Shown here: piece after piece, positions 37,822 to 63,081 of the stretch
Numbering within the stretch: the stretch's first letter is position 1
Layout of the letters: every line of letters begins with the position of its first letter
Source of the DNA: Squalus acanthias
Lineage: Eukaryota
NCBI GenBank assembly: GCA_030390025.1
Contig: CM059431.1
Location: forward strand, 98,024,001 to 98,088,000
DNA: 64,000 bases
Direction: 5' to 3'
Translations under genes and position numbers: made by a program
The notes under the pieces: generated by a model
The model's input: only the letters and a program-made list of their open reading frames with translations
What the model was told of the DNA's origin: nothing
Database searches by the model: none

Positions 37822-38133
37822 GAGGTGTGACAAAATGCTGGTCATTTTTTTATTAAAGGCCGAGGTTCGTGGTCCAACTTTTGTCTAGTGTTTTGGACAT
37901 TATCTCCAGGTTGTGAGAACCAGTTATGTTAATGACTGTTTTTTTGTGTTTATTTCTATGAGTTTGTCATGAGGAAATGACACACACAGAGTTTGTAAAA
38001 TAAATAAGTTTTTGTATTCAAAATATACATGTTTGGTGTTTGGAATCATTGGTGCCTTGGCCGGCTTAGGGGTTGCGTGCTGGGTTCATTGATGTTGTTA
38101 GCAATGGCAGAAGCCATTTCCACAGCAGGGGCC

Positions 38134-39294: not shown

Positions 39295-39479
39295 AGTCTC
39301 TTTGCAAGCAAAGTTATGAAGGACAGCAACCAAAGTACCAGCGAAGTTAGGATCAGTAGGCAAAACTACCTCACAAAGCGTTGACTCAATGCAGAAGTCT
39401 CTCTTTCTCTCTCTCCGAATCTCTCTCTCTCTCTCAGAACGAGTGGTGCAAAAATGTCAACCACAGAAAAAGACAGGAA

Positions 39480-39640
39480 GAGGCCCCCTTTAAATAGCGC
39501 CCCCCCCCCAGCCCCACAGCGATTGATAGCGTTCCAGTCTTCCGGTCGTTGGATGCGCCAGGCGGTAAGGCAGGGGGCGCCACTCAATTTCCGCTCCGGG
39601 GCGCCACAAGGGCGTTGCACCATGGAATGACGTCACAATC
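39480..39640 (-). promoter_or_regulatory. Putative transposase promoter (TATA-like CTATTTAAA on minus ~39489-39497; palindromic CRE TGACGTCA 39628-39635)
   Basis: Both motifs lie 200-340 bp upstream of the transposase ATG and are conserved in copy 2 (CRE at 59358-59365). Function is inferred only. Confidence 0.4.
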
Positions 39641-39926
39641 TGCGCGCGCAGGTGGTCGCGGCGGTAAAGTTTAGCGCCGCCGCACAATGTCTAGTTAATT
39701 TCCCGAGCGGCGCAAACATCGCTGCGCCCGGGCGCTAGCGGCTTTGCGCCCCATTAGCGCCCTCTTAAGGCGCTAACGGGAGGCCCAACCAACTGAATTT
39801 TTCCCCCATCGTGTGCTCCAGCCCACAGCTCTCATCTCCCTTCAGGGTGTTCCTCCCTCCCCAGCCTGAAAATAGCTTAAAATTAGTTTTAGATTAAATA
39901 ATTCGAGTTATTCGAACTCGCTCCCC

Positions 39927-40670: not shown

Positions 40671-43600
40671 CCTATCTAATAAGCCTCATCAATTGCAGCT
40701 CACAGTTAGCACATTTACCCCAGTGTAGTGCCCCAGTATTCCCACACCAACCTGCTCCTCTATAAGGATTGTCTGTGTAGACCGAATCCAAACATAGAAT
40801 TCCAATGCACAAAATCATCCCATTGTTCCGAGACATAACTTCTCAATGAACCACGACTGGAACCTTTCCTGGGCTTGTTTTGTGTGTTGCCATGCTCAGT
40901 TTGGCCAGCCTGGGAATGGCCTCTTAATACAGCTTCTTAAAGGTTGTACTTTGTTTAATCAAGTACATTGAGCTATATAACAAGTGATTAAATGGGTTAA
41001 CTTACAAATCTTGCCAATGGATTGCATTAGTCTAGTCCAAACCCGCTCCCTGTACAAAACCCGATGAGCTTGCTATGGCACTGGGCGAGATCCAGTTATA
41101 TCACATTGAAGGAGCGTGGCTTTTGTGACACTGCGTTCCGCGCTTATTTCATTTGTTTCCAAACACACACTTGCATCACATTGACCTCTGTATGTGGCAT
41201 CAGCACGAGACACAATACTGCGGCTACTGGCCCCTCCCCAAACATAGAGAGTGGGTGGAAAGAGATTGGCCAGTGAGAGCAGTCACGGAATATCTCCATC
41301 CCGCTCCTTCCATCGAAGGAAACAAGCGCAAGGAAAGCCAAACTACTTTCATATATCACATTTCTTGGCAACATCACCCGGTTTAGTGGCAACCAGGGCC
41401 TCTCTCGTGGGATTGAAAGTCTTTGGCGGGGGGAGAGTGCAGGTGTGTGGAGGCTGTAACTGAGTGAGACGCCCAGCCAGTGAGCTGTTCTGAGACCAGC
41501 ACTCGTCTCACCCACTGACTGTTGTTATTGAAGATCAGACAGCTGTTTGTCTCACTGAACATGGGCCAAGCAGGGAAAAGGGCCTCGCAGAGACCACAGT
41601 TACCTCCAGTCAGTATAGGGAACAAGATATAGATTCACAACGAGAGCAGGTCCTGCTGTATAGAACAATCGCAAACCAGCGGCCTGTCGAGTAAAGGAAA
41701 TGCTCCTCACCAAATATCCAGCACATTGACGGAGGAGGTCAACACGAGAGACATAGATCCCAGCATGCACTGGGCAACCGCCAAGGTGGCCATGACTGTC
41801 GATAAAAAACTCACTTTCAAACACCTGAGAGTGACTGACAGGCTGGAGAGAGAGAGGACTAAGGGAGAGAGGTGACTAAGGGACAGAGGAGACTAAGGGA
41901 GAGAGGAGACTAAGGGAGATGGGAGATTAAGGGAGAGAGGGGACTAAGGGAGAGAGGAGACTAAGGGAGAGAGGAGACTTAGGGAGAGAAGGGACTAAGG
42001 GAGAGAGGAGACTAAGAGAGAGAGGAGACTAAGGGAGAGAGGGGACTAAGGGAGAGAGGGGACTAAGAGAGAGAGGGGACTAAGGGAGAGAGGGGACTAA
42101 GAGAGAGAGGTGACTAAGAGAGAGAGGAGACTAAGGGAGAGAGGAGACTAAGGGAGAGAGGAAACTAAGGGAGAGAGGAGACTAAGGGAGAGAGGAGACT
42201 AAGGGAGAGAGGAGATTAAGAGAGAGAGGAGACTAAGGGAGAGAGGAGACTAAGGGAGAGAGGAGACTAAGGGATAGAGGAGACTAAGAGAGAGAGTAGA
42301 CTAAGGGAGGGAGGTGACTAAGGGAGAGAGGGGACTAAGAGAGAGCGGAGACTAAGGGAGAGAGGGGACTAAGAGAGAGAGGAGACTAAGAGAGAGAGGA
42401 GACTAAGAGAGAGAGGAGACTAAGGAGAGAGGAGACTTAGGGAGAGAGGAGACTAAGGGAGAGAGTAGACTTAGGGAGAGAGGAGATTAAGGGAGAGAGG
42501 AGTCTAAGGGAGAGAGATAACGAAGAGAGACAGGGGACTAAGAGAGAGAGGAGACTAAGGGGGAGAGGAGACTAAGAGAGAGAGGAGACTAAGGGAGAGA
42601 GGAGACTTAGGGAGAGAGGAGACTAAGAGAGAGAGGTGACTAGGAGAGAGAAGAGTCTAAGAGAGAGAGGAGACTTAGGGAGAGAGGAGACTAAGAGAGA
42701 GAGAGGTGACTAAGAGAGAGAGTAGACTAAGGGAGGGAGGTGACCAGGGGAGAGAGGAGACTAAGAGAGAGAGGAGACTAAGAGAGAGAGAGGAGACTAA
42801 GAGAGAGATGAGACTGAGGGAGAGAGGAGACTAAGGGAGAGAGGAGACTAAGGGAGAGAGGAGACTAAGGGAGAGAGGAGACTAAGAGAGAGAGCTGACT
42901 AAGACAGAGAGTAGACTAAGGGAGGGAGGTGACTAGGGGAGAGAGGACACTAAGAGAGAGAGGAGACTAAGAGAGAGAGGAGACTAAGAGAGAGAGGAGA
43001 CTTAGGAGAGAGGAGACTAAGAGAGAGAGGAGACTGAGGGAGAGAGAAGACTGAGGGAGAGAGGAGACTAAGGGAGAGAGGAGACTTAGGGAGAGAGGAG
43101 ACTAAGAGAGAGAGGAGACTGAGGGAGAGAGGAGACTAAGGGAGAGAGGAGACTAAGGGAGAGAGGAGACTAAGGGAGAGAGGAGACTGAGGGAGAGAGG
43201 AGACTGAGGGAGAGAGGGGACTAAGGGAGAGAGGAGACTAAGGGAGAGAGGAGACTAAGAGAGAGAGCTGACTAAGACAGAGAGTAGACTAAGGGAGGGA
43301 GGTGACTAGGGGAGAGAGGACACTAAGAGAGAGAGGAGACTAAGAGAGAGAGGAGACTAAGAGAGAGAGGAGACTTAGGGAGAGAGGAGACTAAGAGAGA
43401 GAGGAGACTGAGGGAGAGAGAAGACTGAGGGAGAGAGGAGACTAAGGGAGAGAAGAGACTTAGGGAGAGAGGAGACTAAGAGAGAGAGGAGACTGAGGGA
43501 GAGAGGAGACTAAGGGAGAGAGGAGACTAAGGGAGAGAGGAGACTAAGGGAGAGAGGAGACTGAGGGAGAGAGGAGACTGAGGGAGAGAGGGGACTAAGG

Positions 43601-43788
43601 GAGAGAGGAGACTAAGGGAGAGAGGTGACTTAGGGAGAGAGGAGACTAAGAGAGAGAGGAGACTGAGGGAGAGAGGAGACTAAGGGAGAGAGGAGACTAA
43701 GGGAGAGAGGAGACTAAGGGAGAGAGGAGACTAAGAGAGAGAGGAGACTAAGAGAGAGAGGAGACTTAGGGAGAGAGGGGACTAAGAG

Positions 43789-44235
43789 AGAACATAAGAA
43801 CATAAGAACATAAGAAATAGGAGCAGGAGTAGGCCAATCGGCCCCTCGAGCCTGCTCCGCCATTCAATAAGATCATGGCTGATCTGATGCTAATCGCCAA
43901 TCTACTATCTACTATCACAGAACCATCTCCTGCATCTAACAGAATTGCACACACGAAATAGGAGCAGAATCAGGCTACACGGTCCCTGGGCCCGCTCCAC
44001 TACCCACAGGGCCATGACCGATCCGAACCTAGACTCATGTCCAAATTCCTGCCCGTTCCCCGTAACCCTTAATGCCCTTTACTTCTAGGAAACTGTCTAT
44101 TTCTGTTTTAAATTTATTTAATGATGTAGCTTCTACAGCTTTTTATGGCAGCATATTCCATGGACCTACCACCCTCTGAGTGAAGTAGTTCATCCTCATC
44201 TCAGTTTTGAAAGAGCAGCCCCTTATTCTAAGACT
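43789..44235 (-). mobile_element. CR1 3' end inserted in satellite, copy A
   Basis: (AGAACATA)x3 tail, AATAGGAGCAGGAGTAGGCC, and ORF2 end ACCACCCTCTGAGTGAAG...CCCCTTATTCTAAGACT. Confidence 0.88.
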
Positions 44236-46699
44236 AAGAGAGAGAGGTGACTAAGAGAGAGAGGAGACTAAGGGAGAGAGGGGACTAAGAGAGAGAGGAG
44301 ACTCAGGGAGAGTGGTGACTAAGGGATAGAGGAGACTTAGGGAGAGAGGAGACTAAGAGAGAGAGGAGACTAAGAGAGAGAGGAAACTCAGGGAAAGAGG
44401 GAACTAAGAGAGAGAGGAGACTAAGAGAGAGAGAGGAGACTAAGGGAGAGAGGAGACTTAGGGAGAGAGGAGACTAAGAGAGAGAGGAGACTGAGGGAGA
44501 GAGGAGACTAAGGGAGAGAGGAGACTAAGGGAGAGAGGAGACTGAGGGAGAGAGGAGACTTAGGGAGAGAGGAGACTAAGGGAGAGAGGAGACTTAGGGA
44601 GAGAGGAGACTAAGAGAGAGAGGAGACGAAGGGGGAGTGGGGACTAAGGGAGAGAGGAGACTGAGGGAGAGAGGAGACTAAGGGAGAGAGGAGACTTAGG
44701 GAGAGAGGAGACTAAGAGAGAGAGGGGACTAAGGGAGAGAGGAGACTAAGAGAGAGAGGAGACTAAGAGAGAGAGGAGACTGAGGGAGAGAGGAGACTTA
44801 GGGAGAGAGGAGACTAAGGGAGAGAGGAGACTTAGGGAGAGAGGAGACTAAGAGAGAGAGGAGACTAAGAGAGAGAGGAGACTGAGGGAGAGAGGAGACT
44901 AAGGGAGAGAGGTGACTAAGAGAGAGAGGTGACTAAGGGAGAGAGGAGACTAAGAGAGAGAGGAGACTTAGGGAGAGAGGAGACTAAGGGAGAGAGGAGA
45001 CTAAGAGAGAGAGGAGACTAAGGGAGAGAGGAGACTAAGGGAGAGAGGAGACTAAGGGAGAGAGGAGACTAAGAGAGAGAGAGGAGACTTAGGGAGAGAG
45101 GAGACTAAGGGAGAGAGGTGACTAAGAGAGAGAGGAGACTAAGAGAGAGAGAGGTGACTAAGGGAGAGAGGAGACTAAGGGAGAGAGGAGACTAAGGGAG
45201 AGAGTAGACTGAGGGAGAGAGGAGACTTAGGGAGAGAGGAGACTAAGGGAGAGAGGAGACTTAGGGAGAGAGGAGACTAAGAGAGAGAGGGGACTAAGGG
45301 AGAGAGGAGACTATGGGAGAGAGGAGACTAAGAGAGAGAGGTGACTAAGGAAGAGAGGGGACTAAGGGAGAGAGTAGACTTAGGGAGAGAGGAGACTAAT
45401 AGAGAGAGGGGACTAAGGGAGAGAGGAGACTTAGGGAGAGAGGGGACTAAGAGAGAGCGGAGACTAAGGGAGAGAGGGCACTAAGAGAGAGAGGAGACTA
45501 AGAGAGAGAGAGGAGACTAAGGAGAGAGGAGACTTAGGGAGAGAGGAGACTAAGGCAGAGAGTAGACTTAGGGAGAGAGGAGATTAAGAGAGAGAGGAGA
45601 CTAAGGGAGAGAGGGGACGAAGAGAGACAGGGGACTAAGAGAGAGAGGAGACTAAGGGAGAGAGGAGACTAAGAGAGAGAGGAGACTAAGGGAGAGAGGA
45701 GACTTACGGAGAGAGGAGACTAAGAGAGAGAGGTGACTAAGAGAGGGAAGAGTCTAAGAGAGAGAGGAGACTTAGGGAGAGAGGAGACTTAGAGAGAGAG
45801 AGGTGACTAAGAGAGAGAGTAGACTAAGGGAGGGAGGTGACCAGGGGAGAGAGGAGACTAAGAGAGAGAGGAGACTAAGAGAGAGAGAGGAGACTAAGAG
45901 AGAGAGGAGACTGAGGGAGAGAGGAGACTAAGGGAGAGAGGAGACTAAGGGAGAGAGGAGACTAAGAGAGAGAGGAGACTGAGGGAGAGAGGAGACTGAG
46001 GGAGAGAGGAGACTAAGGGAGAGAGGAGACTAAGGGAGAGAGGAGACTAAGGGAGAGAGCTGACTAAGACAGAGAGTAGACTAAGGGAGGGAGGTGACTA
46101 GGGGAGAGAGGACACTAAGAGAGAGAGGAGACTAAGAGAGAGAGGAGACTAAGAGAGAGAGGAGACTTAGGGAGAGAGGAGACTAAGAGAGAGAGGAGAC
46201 TGAGGGAGAGAGGAGACTGAGGGAGAGAGGAGACTAAGGGAGAGAGGAGTCTTAGGGAGAGAGGAGACTAAGAGAGAGAGGAGACTGAGGGAGAGAGGAG
46301 ACTGAGGGAGAGAGGGGACTAAGGGAGAGAGGAGACTAAGGGAGAGAGGAGACTTAGGGAGAGAGGAGACTAAGAGAGAGAGGAGACTGAGGGAGAGAGG
46401 AGACTGAGGGAGAGAGGAGACTAAGGGAGAGAGGAGACTTAGGGAGAGAGGGGACTAAGGGAGAGAGGAGACTAAGGGAGAGAGGAGACTGAGGGAGAGA
46501 GGGGACTAAGGGAGAGAGGAGACTAAGGGAGAGAGGAGACTTAGGGAGAGAGGAGACTAAGAGAGAGAGGAGACTGAGGGAGAGAGGAGACTAAGGGAGA
46601 GAGGAGACTAAGGGAGAGAGGAGACTAAGGGAGAGAGGAGACTAAGAGAGAGAGGAGACTAAGAGAGAGAGGAGACTTAGGGAGAGAGGGGACTAAGAG

Positions 46700-47146
46700 A
46701 GAACATAAGAACATAAGAACATAAGAAATAGGAGCAGGAGTAGGCCAATCGGCCCCTCGAGCCTGCTCCGCCATTCAATAAGATCATGGCTGATCTGATC
46801 CTAATCGCCAATCTACTATCTACTATCACAGAACCATCTCCTGCATCTAACAGAATTGCACACACGAAATAGGAGCAGAATAAGGCTACACGGTCCCTGG
46901 GCCCGCTCCACTACCCACAGGGCCATGACCGATCCGAACCAAGACTCATGTCCAAATTCCTGCCCGCTCCCCGTAACCCTTAATGCCCTTTACTTCCAGG
47001 AAACTGTCTATTTCTGTTTTAAATTTATTTAATGATGTAGCTTCTACAGCTTTTTGTGGCAGCATATTCCATGGACCTACCACCCTCAGAGTGAAGTAGT
47101 TCCTCCTCATCTCAGTTTTGAAAGAGCAGCCCCTTATTCTAAGACT
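46700..47146 (-). mobile_element. CR1 3' end inserted in satellite, copy B (duplicate of A)
   Basis: Same breakpoints and flanking satellite variants as copy A, offset 2911 bp, ~8 substitutions. Confidence 0.88.
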
Positions 47147-50100
47147 AAGAGAGAGAGGTGACTAAGAGAGAGAGGAGACTAAGGGAGAGAGGGGACTAAG
47201 AGAGAGAGGAGACTCAGGGAGAGTGGTGACTAAGGGATAGAGGAGACTTAGGGAGAGAGGAGACTAAGAGAGAGAGGAGACTAAGAGAGAGAGGAAACTC
47301 AGGGAAAGAGGGAACTAAGAGAGAGAGGAGACTAAGAGAGAGAGGAGACTAAGGGAGAGAGGAGACTAAGGGGGAGAGGGGACTAAGGGAGAGAGTAGAC
47401 TTAGGGAGAGAGGAGACTAAGAGAGAGAGGGGACTAAGGGAGAGAGGAGACTTAGGGAGAGCGGAGACTAAGAGAGAGAGGGGACTAAGGGAGAGAGGAG
47501 ACTAAGAGAGAGAGGAGAATAAGGGAGAGAGAAGACTGAGGGAGAGAGGAGACTTAGGGAGAGAGGAGACTAAGGGAGAGAGGAGACTTAGGGAGAGAGG
47601 AGACTAAGAGAGAGAGAGGGGACTAATGGAGAGAGGAGACTAAGGGAGAGAGGAGACTTAGAGAGAGAGGTGACTAAGGGAGAGAGGGGACTAAGGGAGA
47701 GAGGAGACTAAGAGAGAGAGAGGACTAAGGGAGAGAGGAGACTAAGAGAGAGAGGGGACTGAGGGAGAGAGGAGACTAAGGGAGAGAGGAGACTGAGGGA
47801 GAGAGGAGACTTAGGGAGAGAGGAGACTAAGGGAGAGAGGAGACTTAGGGAGAGAGGTGACTAAGAGAGAGAGGGGACTAAGGGAGAGAGGAGACTAAGA
47901 GAGAGAGGAGACTAAGGGAGAGAGTAGACTGAGGGAGAGAGGAGACTTAGGGAGAGAGGAGACTAAGGGAGAGAGGAGACTTAGGGAGAGAGGAGACTAA
48001 GAGAGAGAGGGGACTAAGGGAGAGAGGAGACTTAGAGAGAGAGGAGACTAAGAGAGAGAGGAGACTAAGAGAGAGAGGGGACTAAGGGAGAGAGGAGACT
48101 AAGAGAGAGAGGAGACTAAGAGAGAGAGGAGACTAAGGGAGAGAGGTGACTAAGAGAGAGAGAGGAGACTAAGGGAGAGAGGAGACTAAGGGAGAGAGGA
48201 GACTAAGGGAGAAAGGAGACTAAGAGAGAGAGGAGACTTAGGGAGAGAGGAGACTAAGGGAGAGAGGAGACTTAGGGAGAGAGGATACTTAGGGAGAGAG
48301 GAGACTAAGAGAGAGAGGGGACTAAGGGAGAGAGGAGACTGAGAGAGAGAGGAGACTTAGGGAGGGAGGAGACTAAGGGAGAGAGGTGACTAAGAGAGAG
48401 AGGAGACTAAGGGAGAGAGGAGACTAAGGGAGAGAGGAGACTAAGGGAGAAAGGAGACTAAGAGAGAGAGGAGACTTAGGGAGAGAGGAGACTAAGGGAG
48501 AGAGGAGACTAAGGGATAGAGTAGACTGAGGGAGAGAGGAGACTTAGGGAGAGAGGAGACTAAGGGAGAGAGGAGACTTAGGGAGAGAGGAGACTAAGAG
48601 AGAGAGGGGACTAAGGGAGAGAGGAGACTAAGGGAGAGCGGAGACTAAGAGAGAGAGGAGACTAAGGGAGAGAGGAGACTAAGAGAGAGAGGAGACTTAG
48701 GGAGAGAGGATACTTAGGGAGAGAGGAGACTAAGAGAGAGAGGGGACTAAGGGAGAGAGGAGACTTAGAGAGAGAGGAGACTAAGGGAGAGAGTAGACTG
48801 AGGGAGAGAGGAGACTTAGGGAGAGAGGAGACTAAGAGAGAGAGGGGACTAAGGGAGAGAGGAGACAAAGGGAGAGAGGAGACTTAGGGAGAGAGGAGAC
48901 TAAGGGAGAGAGGAGACTAAGAGAGTGAGTAGACTGAGGGAGAGAGGAGACTAAGGGAGAGAGGAGACTTAGGGAGAGAGGAGACTAAGGGAGAGAGGAG
49001 ACTAAGGGAGAGAGTAGTCTGAGGGAGAGAGGAGACTTAGGGAGAGAGGAGACTTAGGGAGAGAGGAGACTAAGGGAGAGAGGAGACTGAGGGAGAGAGT
49101 AGACTGAGGGAGAGAGGAGACTAAGGGAGAGAGGAGACTTAGGGAGAGAGGAGACTAAGGGAGAGAGGAGACTAAGGGAGAGAGTAGACTGAGGGAGAGA
49201 GGAGACTTAGGGAGAGAGGAGACTAAGGGAGAGAGGAGACTAAGGGAGAGAGGAGACTAATAGAGAGAGGTGACTAAGGGAGAGAGGAGACTAAGGGAGA
49301 GAGGAGACTAAGAGAGCGAGGGGACTAAGAGAGAGAGGAGACTTAGAGAGAGAGGAGACTAAGGGAGAGAGTAGACTGAGGGAGAGAGGAGACTTAGGGA
49401 GAGAGGAGACTTAGGGAGAGAGGAGACTAAGAGAGAGAGGGGACTAAGGGAGAGAGGAGACTAAGGGAGAGAGGAGACTAAGAGAGAGAGGAGACTTAGG
49501 GAGAGAGGAGACTAAGGGAGAGAGGTGACTAAGAGAGAGAGGAGATTAAGGGAGAGAGGAGACTAAGAGAGAGAGGAGACTTAGGGAGAGAGGATACTTA
49601 GGGAGAGAGGAGACTAAGAGAGAGAGGGGACTAAGGGAGAGAGGAGACTTAGAGAGAGAGGAGACTAAGGGAGAGAGTAGACTGAGGGAGAGAGGAGACT
49701 TAGGGAGAGAGGAGACTAATAGAGAGAGGGGACTAAGGGAGAGAGGAGACTTAGGGAGAGAGGAGACTAAGAGAGCGAGGGGACTAAGAGAGAGAGGAGA
49801 CTAAGAGAGAGAGGGGACGAAGAGAGAGAGGGGACTAAGGGAGAGAGGAGACTAAGGGAGAGAGGAGACTTAGGGAGAGAGGAGACTAAGAGAGAGAGGG
49901 GACTAAGGGAGAGAGGAGACTAAGGGAGAGAGGAGACTAAGAGAGAGAGGAGACTTAGGGAGAGAGGAGACTAAGGGAGAGAGGTGACTAAGAGAGAGAG
50001 GAGATTAAGGGAGAGAGGAGACTAAGAGAGAGAGGAGACTTAGGGAGAGAGGATACTTAGGGAGAGAGGAGACTAAGAGAGAGAGGGGACTAAGGGAGAG

Positions 50101-53100
50101 AGGAGACTTAGAGAGAGAGGAGACTAAGGGAGAGAGTAGACTGAGGGAGAGAGGAGACTTAGGGAGAGAGGAGACTAAGAGAGAGAGGGGACTAAGGGAG
50201 AGAGGAGACGAAGGGAGAGAGGAGACTTAGGGAGAGAGGAGACTAAGGGAGAGAGGAGACTAAGGGAGAGAGGAGACTAAGAGAGAGAGGAGACTTAGGG
50301 AGAGAGGAGACTAAGGGAGAGAGGTGACTAAGAGAGAGAGGAGACTAAGGGGGAGAGGAGACTAAGAGAGAGAGAGGAGACTTAGGGAGAGAGGAGACTA
50401 AGGGAGAGAGGAGACTAAGAGAGAGAGGAGACTAAGGGACGGATGAGACTTAGGGAGAGAGGAGACTAAAGGAGTGAGGTGACTAAGAGAGAGAGGAGAC
50501 TAAGAGAGAGAGGAGACTGAGAGAGAGAGGAGACTAAGAGAGAGAGGAGACTGAGAGAGAGAGGAGACTGAGAGAGGGAGGACAGTAAGAGAGAGAGGAG
50601 ACTAAGGTGAGAGCGGAGACTAAGAGAGAGAGGGGACTAAGGGAGAGAGGAGACTAAGAGAGAGAGGAGACTAAGGGAGAGAGGTGACTAAGGGAGAGAG
50701 GTGACTAAGAGAGAGAGGAGACTTAGGGAGAGAGGGGACTAAGAGAGAGAGGAGACTTAGGGAGAGAGGGGACTAAGAGAGAGAGGAGACTGAGAGAGAG
50801 AGGAGACTGAGAGAGAGAGGAGACTAAGGGAGACAGGAGACTAAGAGAGAGAGGAGACTGAGAGAGAGAGGAGACTAAGAGAGAGAGGAGACTTAGGGAG
50901 AGAGGAGACTAAGAGAGAGAGGAGACTATGGGAGAGAGGAGACTAGGGTGAGAGGAGACTGAGAGAGAGAGGAGACTAAGGGAGAGAGGAGACTAAAGGA
51001 GAGAGGCGACTAAGGGAGAGAGGAGACTGAGAGAGAGAGGAGACTAAGGGAGAGAGGAGACTAGGGTGAGAGGAGATTAAGAGAGAGAGGAGACTTAGGG
51101 AGAGAGGAGACTAAGAGAGAGAGGTGACTAAGAGAGAGAGGAGACTAAGGGAGAGAGGAGACTAAGGGAGAGAGGAGACTTAGGGAGAGAGGAGACTAAG
51201 AGAGAGAGGGGACTAAGGGAGAGAGGAGACTAAGGGAGGAAGGAGACTAAGAGAGAGAGGAGACTTAGGGAGAGAGGAGACTAAGGGAGAGAGGTGACTA
51301 AGAGAGAGAGGAGACTAAGGGGGAGAGGAGACTAAGAGAGAGAGGAGACTTAGGGAGAGAGGAGACTTAGGGAGAGAGGAGACTAAGAGAGAGAGGGGAC
51401 TAAGGGAGAGAGGAGACTTAGAGAGAGAGGAGACTAAGGGAGAGAGTAGACTGAGGGAGAGAGGAGACTTAGGGAGAGAGGAGACTAAGAGAGAGAGGGG
51501 ACTAAGGGAGAGAGGAGACGAAGGGAGAGAGGAGACTTAGGGAGAGAGGAGACTAAGGGAGAGAGGAGACTAAGATGGAGAGGAGACTAAGGGAGAGAGG
51601 AGACTAAGGGAGAGAGGAGACTTAGGGAGAGAGGAGACTAAGAGAGAGAGGGGACTAAGGGAGAGAGGAGACTAAGGGAGAGAGGAGACTAAGAGAGAGA
51701 GGAGACTTCGGGAGAGAGGAGACTAAGGGAGAGAGGTGACTAAGAGAGAGAGGAGACTAAGGGGGAGAGGAGACTAAGAGAGAGAGGAGACTTAGGGAGA
51801 GAGGAGACTAAGGGAGAGAGGAGACTAAGAGAGAGAGGAGACTAAGAGAGAGAGGAGACTAAGAGAGAGAGGTGACAAAGAGAGAGAGGAGACTTAGGGA
51901 GAGAGGAGACTAAGAGAGAGAGGTGACAAAGAGAGAGAGGAGACTTAGGGAGAGAGGAGACTAAGAGAGAGAGAGAGGTCACTAAGAGGGAGAGGAGACT
52001 AAGGGAGGGATGAGACTTAGGGAGAGAGGAGACTAAGGGAGTGAGGTGACTAAGAGAGAGAGGAGACTGAGAGAGAGAGGAGACTGAGAGAGAGAGGAGA
52101 CTAAGAGAGAGAGGAGACTAAGAGAGAGAGTAGACTAAGAGAGAGAGTAGACTAAGAAAGAGAGGAGACTAAGAGAGAGAGGAGACTAAGAGAGAGAGAG
52201 GAGACTGAGAGTGAGAGGAGACTGAGAGAGAGAGGACAGTAAGAGAGAGAGGAGACTAAGGTGAGAGCGGAGACTAAGAGAGAGAGAGGGGACTAAGGGA
52301 GAGAGGAGACTTAGAGAGAGAGGAGACTAAGGGAGAGAGGTGACTAAGGGAGAGAGGTGACTAAGAGAGAGAGGAGACTTAGGGAGAGAGGTGACTAAGA
52401 GAGAGAGGAGACTTAGGGAGAGAGGGGACTAAGAGAGAGAGGAGACTGAGAGAGAGAGGAGACTGAGAGAGAGAGGAGACTAAGAGAGACAGGAGACTAA
52501 GAGAGAGAGGAGACTGAGAGAGAGGAGACTAAGAGAGAGAGGAGACTTAGGGAGAGAGGAGACTAAGAGAGAGAGGAGACTATGGGAGAGAGGAGACTAG
52601 GGTGAGAGGAGACTGAGAGAGAGAGGAGACTAAGGGAGAGAGGAGACTAGGGTGAGAGGAGATTAAGAGAGAGAGGGGACTTAGGGAGAGAGGAGACTAA
52701 GAGTGAGAGGTGACTAAGGGAGAGAGGAGACTAAGGGAGAGAGGAGATTAAGAGAGAGAGGAGACTAAGGGAGAGAGGAGACTAAGGGTGAGAGGAGACT
52801 AAGAGAGAGAGGTGACTAAGAGAGAGAGGAGACTTAGGGAGAGAGGAGACTTAGGGAGAGAGGTGACTAAGGGAGAGAGTAGACTGAGGGAGAGAGGAGA
52901 CTTAGGGAGAGAGGAGACTAAGGGAGAGAGGAGACTTAGGGAGAGAGGAGACTAAGAGAGAGAGGGGACTAAGGGAGAGAGGAGACTAAGGGAGAGCGGA
53001 GACTAAGAGAGAGAGGTGACTAAGGAAGAGAGGGGACTAAGGGAGAGAGTAGACTTAGGGAGAGAGGAGACTAAGAGAGAGAGGGGACTAAGGGAGAGAG

Positions 53101-55639
53101 GAGACTAAGGGAGAGAGGAGACTAAGAGAGAGAGGAGACTTAGGGAGAGAGGAGACTAAGGGAGAGAGGTGACTAAGAGAGAGAGGAGACTAAGGGGGAG
53201 AGGAGACTAAGAGAGAGAGGAGACTTAGGGAGAGAGGAGACTAAGGGAGAGAGGAGACTAAGAGAGAGAGGAGACTAAGAGAGAGAGGAGACTAAGAGAG
53301 AGAGGTGACAAAGAGAGAGAGGAGACTTAGGGAGAGAGGAGACTAAGAGAGAGAGGTGACAAAGAGAGAGAGGAGACTTAGGGAGAGAGGAGACTGAGAG
53401 AGAGAGGACAGTAAGAGAGAGAGGTGACTAAGAGAGAGAGGAGATTAAGAGAGAGAGTAGACTAAGAGAGAGAGTAGACTAAGAGAGAGAGGAGACTAAG
53501 AGAGAGAGGAGACTAAGAGAGAGAGGAGACTGAGAGAGAGAGGAGACTGAGAGAGAGAGGACAGTAAGAGAGAGAGGAGACGAAGGTGAGAGAGGAGACT
53601 AAGAGAGAGAGGGGACTGAGAGAGAGAGGAGACTGAGGGAGAGAGGAGACTGAGGGAGAGAGGACAGTAAGAGAGAGAGGAGACTAAGGTGAGAGAGGAG
53701 ACTAAGGGAGAGAGGAGACTAAGAGAGAGAGGAGACTGAGGGAGAGAGGTGACTAAGGGACAGAGGTGACTAAGAGAGAGAGGAGACTTAGGGAGAGAGG
53801 GGACTAAGAGAGAGAGGAGACTTAGGGAGAGAGGGGACTAAGAGAGAGAGGAGACTGAGAGAGAGAGGAGACTGAGAGAGAGAGGAGACTAAGAGAGACA
53901 GGAGACAAGAGAGAGAGGAGACTGAGAGAGAGAGGAGACTAAGAGAGAGAGGAGACTTAGGGAGAGAGGAGACTAAGAGAGAGAGGAGAATATGGGAGAG
54001 AGGAGACTAGGGTGAGAGGAGACTGAGAGAGAGAGGAGACTAAGGGAGAGAGGAGACTAAAGGAGAGAGGAGACTAAGGGAGAGAGGAGACTGAGAGAGA
54101 GAGGAGACTAAGGGAGAGAGGAGACTAGGGTGAGAGGAGATTAAGAGAGAGAGGAGACTTAGGGAGAGAGGAGACTAAGAGAGAGAGGTGACTAAGAGAG
54201 AGAGGAGACTAAGGGAGAGTGGAGACTAAGAGAGAGAGGTGACTAAGGGAGAGAGGAGACTAAGGGAGAGAGGAGATTAAGAGAGAGAGGAGACTAAGTG
54301 AGAGAGGAGACTAAGGGTGAGAGGAGACTAAGAGAGAGAGGGGACTAAGGGAGAGAGGAGACTAAGAGAGAGAGGAGACTGAGGGAGAGAGGTGACTAAG
54401 GGAGAGAGGTGACTAAGAGAGAGAGGAGACTTAGGGAGAGAGGGGACTAAGAGAGAGAGGAGACTTAGGGAGAGAGGGGACTAAGAGAGAGAGGAGACTG
54501 AGAGAGAGAGGAGACTGAGAGAGAGAGGAGACTAAGAGAGACAGGAGACTAAGAGAGAGAGGAGACTGAGAGAGAGAGGAGACTAAGAGAGAGAGGAGAC
54601 TTAGGGAGAGAGGAGACTAAGAGAGAGAGGAGAATATGGGAGAGAGGAGACTAGGGTGAGAGGAGACTGAGAGAGAGAGGAGACTAAGGGAGAGAGGAGA
54701 CTAAAGGAGAGAGGAGACTAAGGGAGAGAGGAGACTGAGAGAGAGAGGAGACTAAGGGAGAGAGGAGACTAGGGTGAGAGGAGATTAAGAGAGAGAGGAG
54801 ACTTAGGGAGAGAGGAGACTAAGAGAGAGAGGTGACTAAGAGAGAGAGGAGACTAAGGGAGAGTGGAGACTAAGAGAGAGAGGTGACTAAGGGAGAGAGG
54901 AGACTAAGGGAGAGAGGAGATTAAGAGAGAGAGGAGACTAAGTGAGAGAGGAGACTAAGGGTGAGAGGAGACTAAGAGAGAGAGGTGACTAAGGGAGAGA
55001 GGAGACTAAGGGAGAGAGGAGATTAAGAGAGAGAGGAGACTAAGGGAGAGAGGAGACTAAGGGTGAGAGGAGACTAAGAGAGAGAGGTGACTAAGGGAGA
55101 GAGGAGACTAAGGGAGAGAGGAGATTAAGAGAGAGAGGAGACTAAGGGTGAGAGGAGAGTGAGAGAGAGAGGAGACTAAGGGAGAGAGGAGACTAAGGAT
55201 GAGAGGAGACTAAGAGAGAGAGGTGACTAAGGCAGAGAGGAGACTAAGGGAGAGAGGAGACTATGGGAGAGAGGAGACTGAGGGGTAGAAATTAGGTCGC
55301 GCCCCATGTGGGGCGCAAATATCGTCCGGACGCAAATATTAGCGCCTGGCGCTAATTATCGGCACTGACAGGAAACTTCACTTTTACCGCCCCGGGAGGT
55401 GAGTGGAGCGCTCTAGTAGGCGCTGCACACCTCTCTTAAGGCGCAAAGGCCAAGGAGTGAGGCGCTAACTCAGCGCACGAGCGCAGCGCAGCTGCTGCCA
55501 GTTAGCGAGGGAACACAGACACAATGGCACCGGACACTTCTTAAAGCGGGGGGGGGCCACTTGCTCCCCAGCCACACCCTGCTCATTGCAGCCTTGAATC
55601 TCAGCCTGGAGAGACCTGTAATCCATTTTGCTGCCTAGC

Positions 55640-57570
55640 ATGGAGAGGGTGAGAGAACGCGCTCATCGCTTCACCGAGCGGGCCTTGGATGCTCTGGTTG
55701 ACGCAGTGGAGCGCAGACGATGCATGCTGTTCCCGGAGAGTGGCAGGAGGCCTTTGCCACGCGAGTTCAGAAGAGTGTGGAGGGAGGTGGCTCAGAGCGT
55801 CTCCTCCAGGAGCATGGTGCCCAGGACCCATGTTCAATGCCGCAAAAAGTTCAACGACCTCACTCGGGTCGTCAGGGTGAGTGGCTTTTTCTCAATACCT
55901 CTCCATCCCTCCATCTCAACCTCACTCTATGGCCAGAGGGTCTTAAAACCCCAATGCACAACACTCATCCAACACCTATGGCCCTTTCATCAAACACACA
56001 CACACATTCCACACTTTGCATACAGTAAGGGCTATTCACCTATGGGAGGCACATCAGGCAAGACCATGGCTGCATACAGTAAGGGCTATTCACCTATGGG
56101 AGGCACATCAGGCAAGACCATGGCTGCATACAGTAAGGGCTATTCACCTATGGGAGGCACATCAGGCAAGACCATGGCTGCATACAGTAAGGGCTATTCA
56201 CCTATGGGAGGCACATCAGGCAAGACCATGGCTGTATATTTACTCAGATGCTGTCCTTTTTCTTGCAGGCTAAGCTGGCTCATAATCGGAGACAGCAGCA
56301 ACGGACGGGTGGAGGGCGGCTTCAGCTGCAACCCCTCAGCGATCTGGAGGAGCGCGTCCACAGGATTGTGGCAAGCCGGGTGATCGGTCCCGTCGCCACT
56401 GGAGACGCCGACCCCGTTGTGGACAGCAATGGTAAGGTCATCACCTTTTTGTCCTCTGTCCTTCCACTTGTCCCTCACAATACCAGCCTTTGACACTTTC
56501 AATCCAACTTGCTAACTCGCTGCACTTATTCCTCCCTTACTGCCACCCTGTCCTCACGCTAAAGCCACTCTTGTACCTCCCTGCTTTCAGATGGTGATTC
56601 ACCAGCTGAGGAGACGGGCCCTGAAGCTGCCACTGGGAGTGATGCTGCAGCTGAGGAGGAAGAGGAAGCCGGAGCATCAGTGCCACCCTCTCCCGAGGAA
56701 GCCCATGCCCACACTGGGAACACGCCTTCCCCGGAGGGGAGCAGGGGGGAAGGGGCTGATGATGGTGAAGCTCCAGGACCCAGCGGGCTGCAGCAACGCC
56801 ATGGGGGGGGTAGGGAAGAATGGGGGCCTTCTCCCCAGAGGGAGAGTATGCCAGACACTCCTACTGCAATTGACACAGAGGAGGAGCGGCTGATTGCAGA
56901 AATGAACACCCAGGCGGTGGGCATGCACACTGAGCTCATGGGTGCAGTGGGAAGGGTGCCCGATTGCATTGAGTCACTGGCAAGGAGTGTGGAGCACTTC
57001 GCTGTAGCACAGGCGGATGCCACACTAACGCTTAGTGCTGCAATTCAGTCAATGGCTGCCGTGATCCCACCTCTGACTGCTCTCATACAGACTCAGATGG
57101 AGGCCACGCGAGCACAGACTGCTGCCAACCTCGATGGTTCGTGCACATGTCCCCGGGGCTGTCACCGCGCCGCAGCAGGCCAGCAATCTGTTCTCCGGCA
57201 AATTGCTCCGGATGCTGAAGTGCTGCCCCGTGGGAGTGCCAGTGTGTCGGGCGAGCAGGGAGTTGCTGGCCTCTCTCACGATGACAGCATTCCTGCTGCC
57301 AACACTGTCACTTCTCCACTGCACTTGCCACCGCCTGTAGGACAGACTGCTGCCGCCCATGCAGAGTTGGTGCAGTCTGCAGCCGGGCCCTCCAGGCCCA
57401 GAAGTGGTCGAGGCCGTCCTTCAGGGGCATCTGCAGTGTCAGGGTCTGACGAGCAGCAGCCTTCCACCAGCCTTGCTGCAGCCACTGAGGTCCCATTACG
57501 GAGGAGCAGTAGGGTTAGAAGGGGGGAAGTGCGCAAGGGAAGGAGATCACCCTCGAAGGGCAAAAAGTAG
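55640..57570 (+). CDS. Harbinger Myb/SANT-like protein, 3 exons (55640-55876, 56269-56431, 56591-57570), predicted 459 aa
   Basis: Donors AGG|GTGAGT and ATG|GTAAGG, acceptors TTGCAG| and TTTCAG|. 237+163+980=1380 nt with no internal stop. N-terminal trihelix motif, acidic low-complexity middle, helical segment and basic C-terminus (RRSSRVRRGEVRKGRRSPSKGKK). Confidence 0.88.
56018..56233 (+). repeat. 54-bp perfect tandem repeat x4 in intron 1
   Basis: Four identical units, identical to the three units in copy 1. Confidence 0.97.
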
Positions 57571-57864
57571 GAGATGTGCCAAAATGCTGGTCATTTTTTT
57601 ATTAAAGGCCGAGGTTCATGGTCCAACTTTTGTTTAGTGTTTTGGACATTATCTCCAGGTTGTGAGAACCAGTTATGTTATTGACTGTTTTTTTGTGTTT
57701 ATTTCTATGAGTTTGTCATGAGGAATTGACACACACAGAGTTTGTAAAATAAATAAGTTTCTGTATTCAAAATATACATGGCTGGTGGTTGGAATTATTG
57801 GTGCCTTGGCCGGCTTAGGGGTTGCGTGCTGGGTTGATTAGTGTTTGTAGCAATGGCAGGGGCC

Positions 57865-59025
57865 CTAGAAGCGGCTTGCTATTAGTCGTTGACGGACGAC
57901 CCTTGCAGTTTGACCATTGTGGGCCGCCCTCCTGCCTTGGTGCTGCTGATGATCATCGTCCTCGTCCTCTTCCTCCTCTTCCTCCTCCTCCTCTGGTGGT
58001 GCTACAAGGCCTGGTGGCATTGGCTGGGTCCTGAGGATTGCCATGTTGTGCAACATGCAGCACACGACTACGAAGTTCGAAACTTGCTCAGGCGAGTACT
58101 GCAGGGCTCCTCCGGAATGGTCCAGACAGCGGAACCGTTGTTTCAGCACGCCGATTGTGCGCTCAATAATGTTCCTGGTTGCTTGATGGCTTTCATTGTA
58201 CCGCAGCTCAGCAGGGGTGTTTGGCGTACGGAGCGGTGTCATCAGCCAGGTGCTCAATGCGTACCCCTTGTCCCCCAGAAGCCAACCAACTGGCTGATGC
58301 GGTGCCTCGAAAACTTCTGCCACAGTAGTCTGGCGCAGGATGAAAGCATCGTGGCAGCTGCCCGGATAGTGGGCATTGACAGCGAGTATCACCTGTCTGT
58401 GGTCACAGACCAACTGCACATTCAAGGAATGGAACCCCTTTCTGTTCCTGAATTCCTCTGCATTCTCTCGCGGAGCACGCAAAGCCACATGCGTGCAGTC
58501 AATGGCGCCCTGCACCATGGGGAAGCCCGCTACCCTCGCAAAGCCCAGAGCACGGTCACGCTGCTTGTCTGGGGTCATAGGGAAAGAGATGAAGTCTCGT
58601 CTCCTTCTGAAGAGGGCATTGGTGACCTGCCGGATGCAGCGATGCACCGCAAACTGGGAGATATTGGCGAGGTCCCCAACAGCAGCTTGGAATGAGCCAG
58701 TGGCGTAGAAGTTCAAAGCCACTGTGACCTTCACTGCCACCGACAGAGACATCCTGGACCTCAGCTGAGGCTGCAGATCTGGCTGCAGCAGGTGGCAGAG
58801 CTCAGTGACCACCTCCTTGCTGAATCGCAGCCTTCGCAAACACAGCTCCTCGGACATATGGATGTAGGAGAGCTGTTCACGATATACCCTGGGAGGGTAA
58901 GCTCTCCTGTACATGCGCCTGATGGCCCTCCTCCGTCTGGCCATCATTGCCACTCTCTGTCTGCGTCTCAGTATCCTCCGATTCAGCTGGAGCAGGACGA
59001 CGCCCCCAATCATTGCAGCCCCCAT
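57865..59025 (-). CDS. Harbinger DDE transposase (HARBI1-related family), 386 aa, intact
   Basis: GAIDCTHV, NRKGFHSLNVQLVCD, PGSCHD, LLGDKGY, IERTIGVLKQRFRCL; uninterrupted ORF. Confidence 0.96.
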   Translation of the reverse strand: MGAAMIGGVVLLQLNRRILRRRQRVAMMARRRRAIRRMYRRAYPPRVYREQLSYIHMSEELCLRRLRFSKEVVTELCHLLQPDLQPQLRSRMSLSVAVKVTVALNFYATGSFQAAVGDLANISQFAVHRCIRQVTNALFRRRRDFISFPMTPDKQRDRALGFARVAGFPMVQGAIDCTHVALRAPRENAEEFRNRKGFHSLNVQLVCDHRQVILAVNAHYPGSCHDAFILRQTTVAEVFEAPHQPVGWLLGDKGYALSTWLMTPLRTPNTPAELRYNESHQATRNIIERTIGVLKQRFRCLDHSGGALQYSPEQVSNFVVVCCMLHNMAILRTQPMPPGLVAPPEEEEEEEEEDEDDDHQQHQGRRAAHNGQTARVVRQRLIASRF

Positions 59026-61644
59026 ATTCTCTTTGCCAGAAAAGTAATGAGGTACAGCAACTAAAGTAGCACCAAAGTAAGGATGAACTAGGCAAAACTA
59101 CCTCACAAAGCGTTGAGTCAATGTAGAAGTCTCTCTCTCTCTCTCTCCGAATCTCTCTCTCTCTCTCAGAACGAGTGGTGCATAAATGTCGACCACAGAA
59201 AAAGACAGGAAGAGGCCCCCTTTAAATAGCGCCCCCCCCAGCCCCACACCGATTGATAACGTTCCAGTCTTCCGGTCGTTGGAAGCGCCAGGCGGTAAGG
59301 CAGGGGGCGCCACTCAATTTCCGCTCCGGGGCGCCCCAAGGGCGTTGCACCATGGAATGACGTCACAATCTGCGCGCGCAGGTGGTCGCAGCGGTAAGTT
59401 TTAGCGCCGCCGCACAATCTCAAGTTAAGTTCTCGAGCGGCGCAAACAGCGCTGCGCCCGGGCGTTAGCGGCTTAACGCCCCATTAGCGCCCTCTTAAGG
59501 CGCTAACGGGAGGCGCAACCAAGTGAATTTTTACCCCTAAGGGTGAGAGGAGACTAAGAGAGAGAGGAGACTAAGGGAGAGAGGAGATTAAGAGAGAGAG
59601 GAGACTAAGAGAGAGAGGAGACTTAGGGAGAGAGGAGACTAAGGGAGAGAGTAGACTTAGGGAGAGAGGAGACTAAGGGAGAGAGGAGACTTAGGGAGAG
59701 AGGAGACTAAGAGAGAGAGGGGACTAAGGGAGAGAGGAGACTAAGAGAGAGAGGGGACTAAGGGAGAGAGGAGACCAAGAGAGAGAGGAGACTGAGGGAG
59801 AGAGGAGACTAAGAGAGAGAGGGGACTAAGGGAGAGAGGAGACCAAGAGAGAGAGGAGACTGAGGGAGAGAGGAGACTAAGGGAGAGAGGTGACTAAGAG
59901 AGAGAGGAGACTAAGGGAGAGAGGAGACTAAGAGAGAGAGGAGACTTAGGGAGAGAGGAGACTAAGGGAGAGAGGAGACTGAGGGAGAAAGGACACTAAG
60001 AGAGAGAGGTGACTAAGAGAGAGAGGAGACTAAGAGAGAGAGGAGACTTAGGGAGAGAGGAGACTAAGAGAGAGAGGTGACTAAGAGAGAGAGGAGACTT
60101 ATGGAGAGAGGAGACTAAGAGAGAGAGAGGTGACTAAGAGAGAGAGTAGACTAAGAGAGAGAGGGGACTGAGAGAGAGAGGAGACTAAGAGAGAGAGGAA
60201 ACTGAGAGAGAGAGGAGACTGAGAGAGAGAGGAGACTAAGAGAGACAGGAGACTAAGAGAGAGAGGAGACTGAGAGAGAGAGGAGACTAAGGGAGAGAGG
60301 AGACTCGGGTGAGAGGAGACTGAGAGAGAGAGGAGTCTAAGGGAGAGAGGAGACTGAGTGAGAGAGGAGAATAAGGGAGAGAGGAGAATAAGGGAGAGAG
60401 GAGACTAAGGGTGAGAGGAGACTAAGAGAGAGAGGAGACTGAGAGAGAGAGGAGACTAAGAGAGAGAGGAGACTAAGGGAGAGAGGAGACTAAAGGAGAG
60501 AGGAGACTAAGGGAGAGAGGAGACTAAGGGAGAGAGGAGACTAGGGTGAGAGGAGATTAAGAGAGAGAGCAGACTAAGGGAGAGAGGAGACTAAGGGTGA
60601 GAGGAGACTAAGAGAGAGAGGTGACTAAGGGAGAGAGGAGACTAAGAGAGAGTGGAGATTAAGAGAGAGAGGAGACTAAGGGAGAGAGGAGACTTTGGGA
60701 GAGAGGAGACTAAGAGAGAGAGTAGACTAAGAGAGAGAGGAGACTAAGAGAGAGAGGAGACTAAGGGAGAGAGGAGATTAAGCGAGAGAGGAGACTAAGA
60801 GAGAGAGGAGACTAAGGGAGAGAGGAGACTAAGTGTGAGAGGAGACTAAGAGAGAGAGGAGACTAAGAGAGAGAGGTGACTAAGGGATAGAGGATTCCAA
60901 GGGAGAGAGGAGACAGAGAGAGAGGAGACTAAGGGAGAGAGGAGACTAAGGGTTAGAGGAGACTAAGAGAGAGAGGAGACTAAGAGAGAGATGTGACTAA
61001 GAGAGAGAGGAGACTAAGGGAGAGAGGAGACTTAGGGAGAGACTGAAAGACTAGAATAAAAAGCGAGCAGTTTCAGGACAATGCAGTGAGACGGAGTGGA
61101 ATTGTGAATTGTGAATTGTGCTTCATCTCCTGGTTTTGGCTCTTGGGCTGATTTATTACAGGAATGCTGATAAACTGCAGCCTCAAACCAAATAAAGAGC
61201 GCGATCAAAGGGAAATCTGGTACATTCCACAGAGTTGCAGAAATGCCCAGTCCCTTGCGCAGCATCGCGATTTACATATTTGGGAACATCCAGTGCATTC
61301 CAGACAGGTTTCAGGACTTTGCTCCGTGTTCCTTTATAAGGCCGAGAGATCGGGGATTGTGTGGTTGGAATGGACCCACATTCTCTCAGCAGAATGTTGC
61401 CCAAATGATACGTCTTTAATGTTTTACCCGAAGTCCCCCAGCAATTGGCTGCAGGAATCTGCCTCTCACCATTCCACAGCTCTGTGAATTTCAGAGCTCT
61501 GGCATCAGCTGTGTGCACAGATCGCTCCTCTTCATTCAAAGTTCTTTCATTGAAGTTATCTGATAACTCACATTGTGAATCCTTCAGCCGTGTCACTCAC
61601 GTTGCTTCATTCAAATTATTGGAGAATTCATATTTTCTTCGCAT

Positions 61645-62014: not shown

Positions 62015-63081
62015 AGAACATAAGAATTAGGAGCAGGAGTCGGAGTCCGCCCCTCCAGCCTGCTCCGCCCCGCCAGCCTGCTCCGCCCCTCCTGCCTGCT
62101 CCGCCCCTCCAGCCTGCTCCGCCATTCAATAAGATCATGGCTGATCTTTGACCTCAACTCCACTTTCCTGCACTATCCCCATATCCCTCGATTCCCTTAA
62201 TATCCAAAAATCTATCGCTCTCTGTCTTGAATATACTCAACGACTGAGCACCCACAGCCCTCTGGGGCAGAGAATTCCAAAGATTCACCACCCTCTGAGT
62301 GAAGAAATTTCTCCTCATCTCAGTCTTAAATGGCCGACCCCTTATCCTGAGACTGTGATCCCTGGTTCTAGACTCCCCAGACAGGGGAAAACATCCTCCC
62401 TGCATCTACCCTGTCAAGCCCTGTAAGAATATTATGGGGGAAAATTCGGTCGCGCCCCATTTGGTCGGTAACTTTTTCGGAGTGCTAAAAGTAGATTCAA
62501 CGGTAGCGCCCCATGCAGGAGGCGGGGCTACTGGAAGCGCTCCCCCTCCTTCCTGGGGCGCTACCAGTGAATATCGCGGCACTATGTGCAACAGCGCCAC
62601 GTGCGTCAGGACGTAGCGCCGCGGTACTGCAGGCCTCCCTCCCCTGACTCCACTCAAGAGGAGTGCCGGGCTGACCGAGCGCGGCCGGCACCCCGCGTGA
62701 GGAAGTGGAAGGGGGCAGGTGCTGGCAAGCGGCACAAAAAAAAAGGCCGCCCGACACCTGCCCTTTGACTTGCGCCGCTGTGGCCGCAAAAACGCCCCCT
62801 GACCCTGTCGGACATGGTGTCCGGCGGTAGGTCAGGGGGCGCAAGCGACATTTACATCCGGTGCGCGAGCGGGACGCTGCGCACGGCGATGACATCATCG
62901 CCGGAGGCGCAGCGCCACGGGGCGATACCGGCTACCACCACCGCTAACCTCCCACTGAATTTTGCAGGAGGCGTTAGTGCCGCCGCGCCCAGGCGCTAGG
63001 GGCTTTGCGCCCTGTTAGTGCCCCCCGGGGGTGCTAACGGGAGGTGCAAGAAAAGCCAATTTTTCCCCCTCTATGTTTCAA
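62015..63081 (-). mobile_element. CR1 3' fragment (62015-62435, resumes 63070-63081) split by a MITE
   Basis: Minus-strand RTRDHSLRIRGRPFKTEMRRNFFTQRVVNLWNSLPQ; AGAACATAAGAA tail; short internal expansion of CCTGCTCCGCCCCTCCAG at ~62047-62122. Confidence 0.88.
62436..63069 (+). mobile_element. Non-autonomous Harbinger MITE inserted in CR1
   Basis: Ends GGGGGAAAATTCGGTCGCGCCCC / AATTTTTCCCCC match the autonomous copy 1 ends. Flanks TAT / TCT split CR1 AGAATAT-TAT-ATGTTTCAA. Confidence 0.88.

Follow-up and report, generated by a model that had tools for sequence, protein, structure and literature searches.

Exchange between the copies of a DNA transposon is already a known and ordinary process, and among dispersed Tc1 copies of C. 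elegans it was reportedly observed by Fischer et al. in 2003. In the Drosophila P element, regulated retention of the third intron yields a repressor. Recombinant, mosaic DNA transposons are documented in the work on Pokey in Daphnia (PMC3575242), and possible recombination between fish Harbinger lineages is raised in another study (PMC9179366). Here, we describe a related situation in a 64,000-nucleotide stretch of the Squalus acanthias genome (contig CM059431.1, positions 98,024,001 to 98,088,000 of the forward strand), which is called the window below and to which all positions refer. The window holds exactly two full copies of a PIF/Harbinger element, namely copy 1 at 35590-39807 (+ strand, 4218 bp) and copy 2 at 55282-59537 (+ strand, 4256 bp, with both of its genes open), their extents being derived from blastn and from alignment of each copy to the other. 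The two copies are nearly identical throughout both introns of the Myb-like gene of the element, while they are clearly diverged in every other named part. The low divergence appears to follow tracts of sequence and only approximately the introns, and at a rough probability of 0.55 we favor a mosaic ancestry, in which about 0.9 kb was recently exchanged, or patchily gene-converted, between two selected subfamilies. Like the mosaic transposons (Pokey, fish Harbinger), the pair consists of segments of very different divergence, with tracts of a few hundred bases and a short internal discontinuity; unlike them, it comprises only two copies, and its tracts happen to cover both introns.

Divergence between the two copies

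A global MAFFT alignment of copy 1 with copy 2 was used to count substitutions per aligned base, and the element as a whole showed 213 substitutions over 4197 aligned bases. The Myb-like gene lies on the + strand and is described here by its copy 2 coordinates. Its exon 1 (55640-55876, 79 codons) differs at 13/237 positions (5.5%), exon 2 (56269-56431, 163 bp) at 7/163 (4.3%), five of these changes being synonymous, and exon 3 (56591-57570) at 41/977 (4.2%). Intron 1 (55877-56268, GT..AG, 392 bp), in contrast, differs at 3/338 positions (0.9%), plus one 54-bp repeat unit, and intron 2 (56432-56590, GT..AG, 159 bp) at only 1/159 (0.6%). The remaining parts are all diverged: the 5' end at 31/357 (8.7%), the spacer between the genes at 16/297 (5.4%), the coding sequence of the transposase at 68/1173 (5.8%), and the 3' end at 33/496 (6.7%). 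Where an initial annotation of this DNA had given counts, these numbers reproduce them exactly; the annotation had marked the region 55877-56590, i.e., the first base of intron 1 through the last base of intron 2, for introns far more conserved than their exons. The low divergence of the introns is indeed pronounced, as the two together differ at 4/497 aligned bases (0.8%), compared with 4.2-8.7% in every other part (P = 1.0e-8 by a binomial test and p = 8.4e-8 by Fisher's test when the introns are set against the rest of the element, and p = 5.6e-9 by Fisher's test when they are set against the other non-coding parts).

Two simple explanations are that the introns mutate less, being CpG-poor and AT-richer, and that the contrast arose by chance. 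It was indeed found that intron 1 has no CpG (observed/expected ratio 0) and intron 2 has two (0.29), while the exons are CpG-rich. However, when divergence outside CpG was compared, the introns still differed at 3/490 positions and all other parts at 146/3278 (the exon-1 borders being one base off in this count), and the spacer, which is itself CpG-poor (0.30) with 39% GC, is as diverged as the exons. Thus, the CpG-content effect that the initial annotation had named beforehand as fatal to its claim is not the cause. As regards chance, in addition to the binomial probability, the two-intron geometry was slid over 3543 offsets, and four or fewer substitutions were obtained only at the 48 offsets from -45 to +2, all at or beside the true position, against a median of 26. 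Composition and chance, taken together, can be given next to no weight. The CpG depletion of the introns, similar to that of the spacer, is as in sequence that has long been evolving freely, which is in favor of mosaic ancestry.

A maximum-likelihood fit of two blocks with free edges placed the low divergence in two tracts. Tract 1 (55768-56260) comprises the 3' end of exon 1 and intron 1, with 3/439 positions differing, and tract 2 (56347-56632) begins with the 3' half of exon 2, takes in intron 2, and extends 42 bp into exon 3, with 2/286 differing. Between them lies a divergent patch (56261-56346) with 7 differences in 86 bp, which begins 8 bp inside intron 1. The two tracts together amount to a uniform near-identity (5 differences in 725 bases) that is not motif-like. 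The log-likelihood (lnL) was -842.4 for a uniform rate, -826.9 for blocks set exactly at the introns, -825.0 for the best single block, and -817.0 for the two free blocks; the last model is therefore better by 25, 9.9, and 8 lnL, respectively. The edges of the free blocks fall at -109, -8, -85, and +42 bp from the four splice sites. In this fit, three of the four exon/intron borders are disregarded by the low divergence.

The same picture was obtained when exons 1 and 2 were divided into predefined halves, as the 5' halves differed at 17/199 positions and the 3' halves at only 3/201 (Fisher p = 0.0011). The 5' half held 11 of the 13 differences in exon 1 and 6 of the 7 in exon 2; at finer scale, the last 109 bp of exon 1 contain a single difference, and the first 78 bp of exon 2 contain six. 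Synonymous changes in these exons, compared post hoc, numbered 1.0 in 56.8 sites inside the tracts, as against 11 in 51.5 sites outside them (Fisher p = 0.0013). In both exons that are followed by an intron, the 3' half is therefore as conserved as the intron itself. From the initial annotation, the low divergence of the introns stands, while its clean division into introns and exons does not; the contrast appears to go by tract, and 'introns versus exons' is only an approximate description of it. The annotation had also named, among the things that would refute it, a low-divergence block whose edges miss the splice sites, and this applies in part. The gain of 9.9 lnL for free edges speaks for such a block, but the simulations temper it: when the introns were given a low rate and the rest a uniform one, the advantage of the free blocks was reached in 4.4% of 1000 runs (P = 0.044), and when the exons were also given a lower rate, it was reached in 47% (P = 0.47). 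With one difference per 18 bp and two copies only, the edges can be placed no better than to about 50-100 bp.

Ancestry of the low-divergence segment

The differences between the copies bear the mark of selection. Synonymous (dS) and nonsynonymous (dN) divergence of the transposase are 0.14 and 0.037, giving a dN/dS of 0.26, and exons 1 and 2 together have a dS of 0.13 and a dN/dS of 0.20. From these ratios it follows that most of the differences arose in lineages that were still selected, and not by decay after insertion. In a DNA sequencing run designated X1, the other letter was that of copy 1 at 36 of the 40 variable places listed (out of 334), mostly at intermediate shares, which agrees with the differences being lineage differences. 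The intron divergence of 0.8%, in turn, sets an upper limit on decay since insertion. Two selected lineages thus carry nearly the same introns.

Mosaic ancestry would account for this as follows. The two copies would belong to two lineages, or subfamilies, of one very large PIF/Harbinger family, which would have split while both were under selection for a working transposase and Myb domain. Over about 0.9 kb (55768-56632), the copies would share a much more recent ancestor than elsewhere, the stretch having been swapped between the lineages by ectopic gene conversion or by template switching in the repair of the gap left by excision. The short patch at 56261-56346 would have been left divergent and unconverted, as in a discontinuous conversion tract. 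Since the exchanged stretch would happen to contain both introns, the introns look far more conserved than the exons. The data show the tract structure, the selection on the coding parts, and that the lineages account for most of the differences; it is the event and its mechanism that we infer. A uniform near-identity is what recent shared ancestry predicts. The initial annotation had offered different histories of exons and introns as one of its options, and it is this option that we prefer, in the form of a recent segment exchange between subfamilies.

The content of intron 1 points the same way. More than half of it is made up of a 54-bp minisatellite (56017-56238, + strand, 4.1 units by Tandem Repeats Finder), which in copy 1 occupies 36325-36492 (+ strand, 3.1 units by the same program). 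Both copies have the same consensus unit, with 99% matches between units, by which the array is young or homogenised; it could hardly predate a split of 5-13% unless every base of it were essential.

Different histories could also have come about through cDNA, a route named by the initial annotation, in which the exons would have been converted from the spliced cDNA of a divergent lineage and the introns left untouched. It is in keeping with this route that the divergent patch of exon 2 sets in no more than 10 bp away from the 3' splice site of intron 1. However, the end of exon 1 and the start of exon 2 adjoin each other in a cDNA, and yet their divergence is opposite (1 difference in 109 bp versus 6 in 78 bp). 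Moreover, one difference of the patch (56261) sits inside the intron, and divergence is just as high in the spacer, in the transposase gene, and at the ends of the element, which are not transcribed. The cDNA route therefore does not fit, and we regard it as most improbable.

Near-identity over a limited stretch might, alternatively, be an artefact of assembly or polishing, whereby ambiguously mapped reads of a family with many thousands of copies pulled both copies to one consensus at this place. The family is indeed very large, considering that 32409 contigs of the single DNA run X1 align to the element. Nonetheless, there is no reason why such an artefact should strike these 0.9 kb and nothing else, both copies keep letters of their own elsewhere, and the intron bins of X1 have no extra depth, contig depth being a poor measure; this explanation is very unlikely. 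On the same bins, the notion that the introns are part of a more abundant repeat was considered and rejected for want of excess depth (contig depth cannot rank the parts of a gene). Tract 1 is not free of variation in the family, which is in keeping with mosaic ancestry: the two copies have the same letters at 55832 and 55833, but other letters make up about half of the X1 depth there, and one X1 contig over 55821-55945 carries 11 other letters.

Several observations weigh against mosaic ancestry. Both introns lie wholly within the low tracts, and the sole divergent patch is almost wholly exonic; by a rough estimate, a patch placed at random in the 865-bp tract would give that arrangement about 1 time in 10, although a scan of 64 kb for oddities would single out just such a coincidence. 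The pattern is also oddly regular, in that the 3' half of the upstream exon is joined with the intron twice, and the mismatch between tract edges and splice sites is marginal in the simulations described above. Two copies cannot show a donor, a breakpoint common to other copies, or an incongruence between trees. Lastly, only 1 of the 40 listed variable places of X1 falls in the introns, where 5.2 would be expected; these places are dominated by the same two lineages and are not independent evidence either way. Four-gamete reasoning on contig 9 of run X17 and contig 26 of run X8 gave three haplotypes per pair of sites, and hence no proof of recombination.

Splicing of the Myb-like gene and a possible constraint on its introns

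Support for the splicing of intron 2 comes from runs X17 and X19, in each of which one contig contains a joint that omits precisely these 159 bases and has GT..AG ends. The two runs belong to different studies and to different coded organisms, and on its shorter side the joint is 19 and 29 letters long; the RNA label of both runs is a guess, and DNA may be present in them. The joint is absent from those listed for the DNA runs X1 and X8. For intron 1, support comes from the sawshark protein P0007 (523 residues), which aligns without gaps to residues 5-113 of the spliced translation, across the exon 1/exon 2 junction, with 47% identity, whereas a translation that retains intron 1 aligns to P0007 only up to residue 79. 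No intron-1 joint was found among the 15 joints listed (28 further joints lie beyond the listing). One X19 contig runs from the last base of exon 2 (56431) into 29 unrelated letters, and this loose end may be the exon-2 donor spliced to a foreign exon in a chimeric transcript.

It is to be noted that in both copies the reading frame of exon 1 remains open across the whole of intron 1 (392 bases), ending at 56383 within exon 2, and that the 54-bp repeat reads in this frame as an 18-residue repeat. Such a frame would be in favor of a control of splicing, in which case the introns and, upstream of each 5' splice site, about 100 nt of exon would be kept nearly invariant in active lineages. The polarity of the tracts is as expected for control through the upstream exon, since the 3' half of an exon and the following intron are low twice; at the 3' end of intron 1, divergence turns sharply back to a high value within about 10 bp of the splice site; synonymous sites beside the 5' splice sites are nearly unchanged (1.0 per 56.8); and contigs of X17 (55589-56046) and X19 (55834-55990), both of guessed RNA origin, cross the border of exon 1 and intron 1. 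These border contigs, however, may come from DNA, or from thousands of copies read through without splicing, and the joints listed show intron 2 and not intron 1. The constraint would also have to hold about 99% identity over 725 bases, which is stronger than the constraint on amino acid changes in the transposase (dN 0.037), in a region containing a minisatellite whose unit number differs between the copies. Furthermore, both substitutions in the unique part of intron 1 alter the protein of the retained intron (E/Q and R/H). Overall, a splicing constraint is an unlikely explanation of the tracts, although it deserves to be kept in mind.

The more specific proposal would be that the element controls its own activity by regulated splicing, keeping introns and about 100 nt of upstream exon near invariant between lineages that are otherwise 5-13% diverged under selection, in the manner of the P element but in a vertebrate Harbinger. 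For example, retention of intron 1 would produce a truncated protein consisting of the Myb domain only, which ends at 56383 and would compete for the ends of the element. As with the P element, this would explain a conserved intron together with the exon just upstream of the 5' splice site, and retention would lead to a truncated DNA-binding protein. Unlike in the P element, the retained-intron isoform is hypothetical here, no regulator is known, and the conservation is uniform and not motif-like. We consider such self-regulation somewhat more doubtful still than a splicing constraint in general.

Searches of the introns for a function at the nucleotide level, which the initial annotation had suggested together with a check of RNA structure, gave no positive support. 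Neither intron had a match in Rfam at E<=1; the two matches that reached this value are outside the introns and score well under the gathering scores. No stable RNA structure was found, as introns 1 and 2 fold worse than shuffled sequence on the + strand, the only one folded (z = +2.33 and +1.40, respectively). Also missing from the introns are the GCGC-containing motifs that recur close to either end of the element. The uniformity of the near-identity likewise gives no support to a function at the nucleotide level, and the lack of an Rfam match and of a stable structure also counts against a splicing constraint.

The element and its family

The element resembles the known two-gene PIF/Harbinger elements in having a DDE_Tnp_4 transposase gene and a Myb/SANT-like gene arranged tail to tail, short terminal inverted repeats, and a 3-bp target-site duplication. 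The transposase gene (57868-59040, - strand, one exon) encodes a PIF-type transposase that matches Pfam DDE_Tnp_4 (PF13359) at E = 2.6e-39, with 134.8 bits against a cut-off of 24.8, and it gave 394 hits, the closest annotated ones being 'putative nuclease HARBI1' of sharks and rays, at no more than 66% identity. Exon 1 of the second gene contains a Myb/SANT-like domain, matching Myb_DNA-bind_5 (PF13873) at E = 1.3e-9, with 38.3 bits against a cut-off of 21.7. At its ends, the element has 12-mers that form inverted repeats, with 11 of 12 positions matching. The target-site duplication is perfect in copy 1 (ATC/ATC), while the flanks of copy 2 (TGA/TAA) agree in 2 of 3 bases. The usual target of PIF/Harbinger elements is TWA, which is found on one side of copy 2 only. 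Unlike in known PIF/Harbinger elements, the C-terminal two thirds of the Myb-like protein have no detectable relative, and the family is extremely abundant in the runs searched.

This C-terminal region is encoded by exon 3, which is open for 335 codons in copy 2, while copy 1 reads TGA at one place at which CGA stands in copy 2. The exon-3 part (325 residues, 56593-57567) had no match in Pfam and no homologue among proteins of 178-569 residues. Between the copies, exon 3 has a dN of 0.048 and a dS of 0.026. The low dS might have marked it as a 'young' segment, but this was rejected, as its divergence at CpG sites (15/84) matches that of the transposase (27/130); exon 3 is a weakly constrained, fast-evolving tail. 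Its second half (57081-57570) has 21 differences, which fall 2/13/6 at codon positions 1/2/3, and 7 of the 21 are T in copy 1 and G in copy 2, an odd spectrum.

The flanks of the two copies are unrelated, which makes them independent insertions, and no third copy was found in the window by sensitive blastn or by tblastn with all four protein parts. Copy 2 is hosted by a 17-bp satellite that picks up again at 59537. In the window, this satellite spans 41845-55281 and 59537-61042, the right side alone having 88.7 units at 87% matches; the array apparently begins near 41.8 kb and restarts near 44.2 and 47.1 kb. Weak similarity to the right subterminal region of the element was also noted at 31655-31871 (68%) and 62981-63069 (75%), and these may be ends of related elements or of MITEs, miniature transposable elements with inverted repeats.

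Beyond the window, transposase-based scans of viral, metagenome, and genome contigs returned no relative and no further copy. On the other hand, 18 runs, which represent nine coded organisms (A-I), contain half or more of the 31-mers sampled from the element, no RNA run being listed among those that contain them, and this points to near-identical copies in several organisms; such sharing means that these are close relatives, that activity was very recent, or that transfer was horizontal. In X1, the summed contig depth at the ends of the element (55282-55423 and 59400-59537) is 2-5 times that of the interior, contig depth being a poor measure, and one X1 contig links 55412 to 59200, leaving out 3787 bases. 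Together, these two observations suggest many internally deleted or MITE-like derivatives.

As to what the locus would mean, a splicing constraint, if true, would give the first hint that a vertebrate Harbinger regulates itself through splicing, and its introns would be more strongly constrained than a transposase, which is rare. As it stands, this functional interpretation of the introns is unsupported, and the residual chance of a more interesting cause is modest. If, instead, the exchange is true, the two copies document a clear but ordinary case of reticulate evolution in a very large family of DNA transposons, and they serve mainly as a warning that age estimates and subfamily trees of that family must be made segment by segment.

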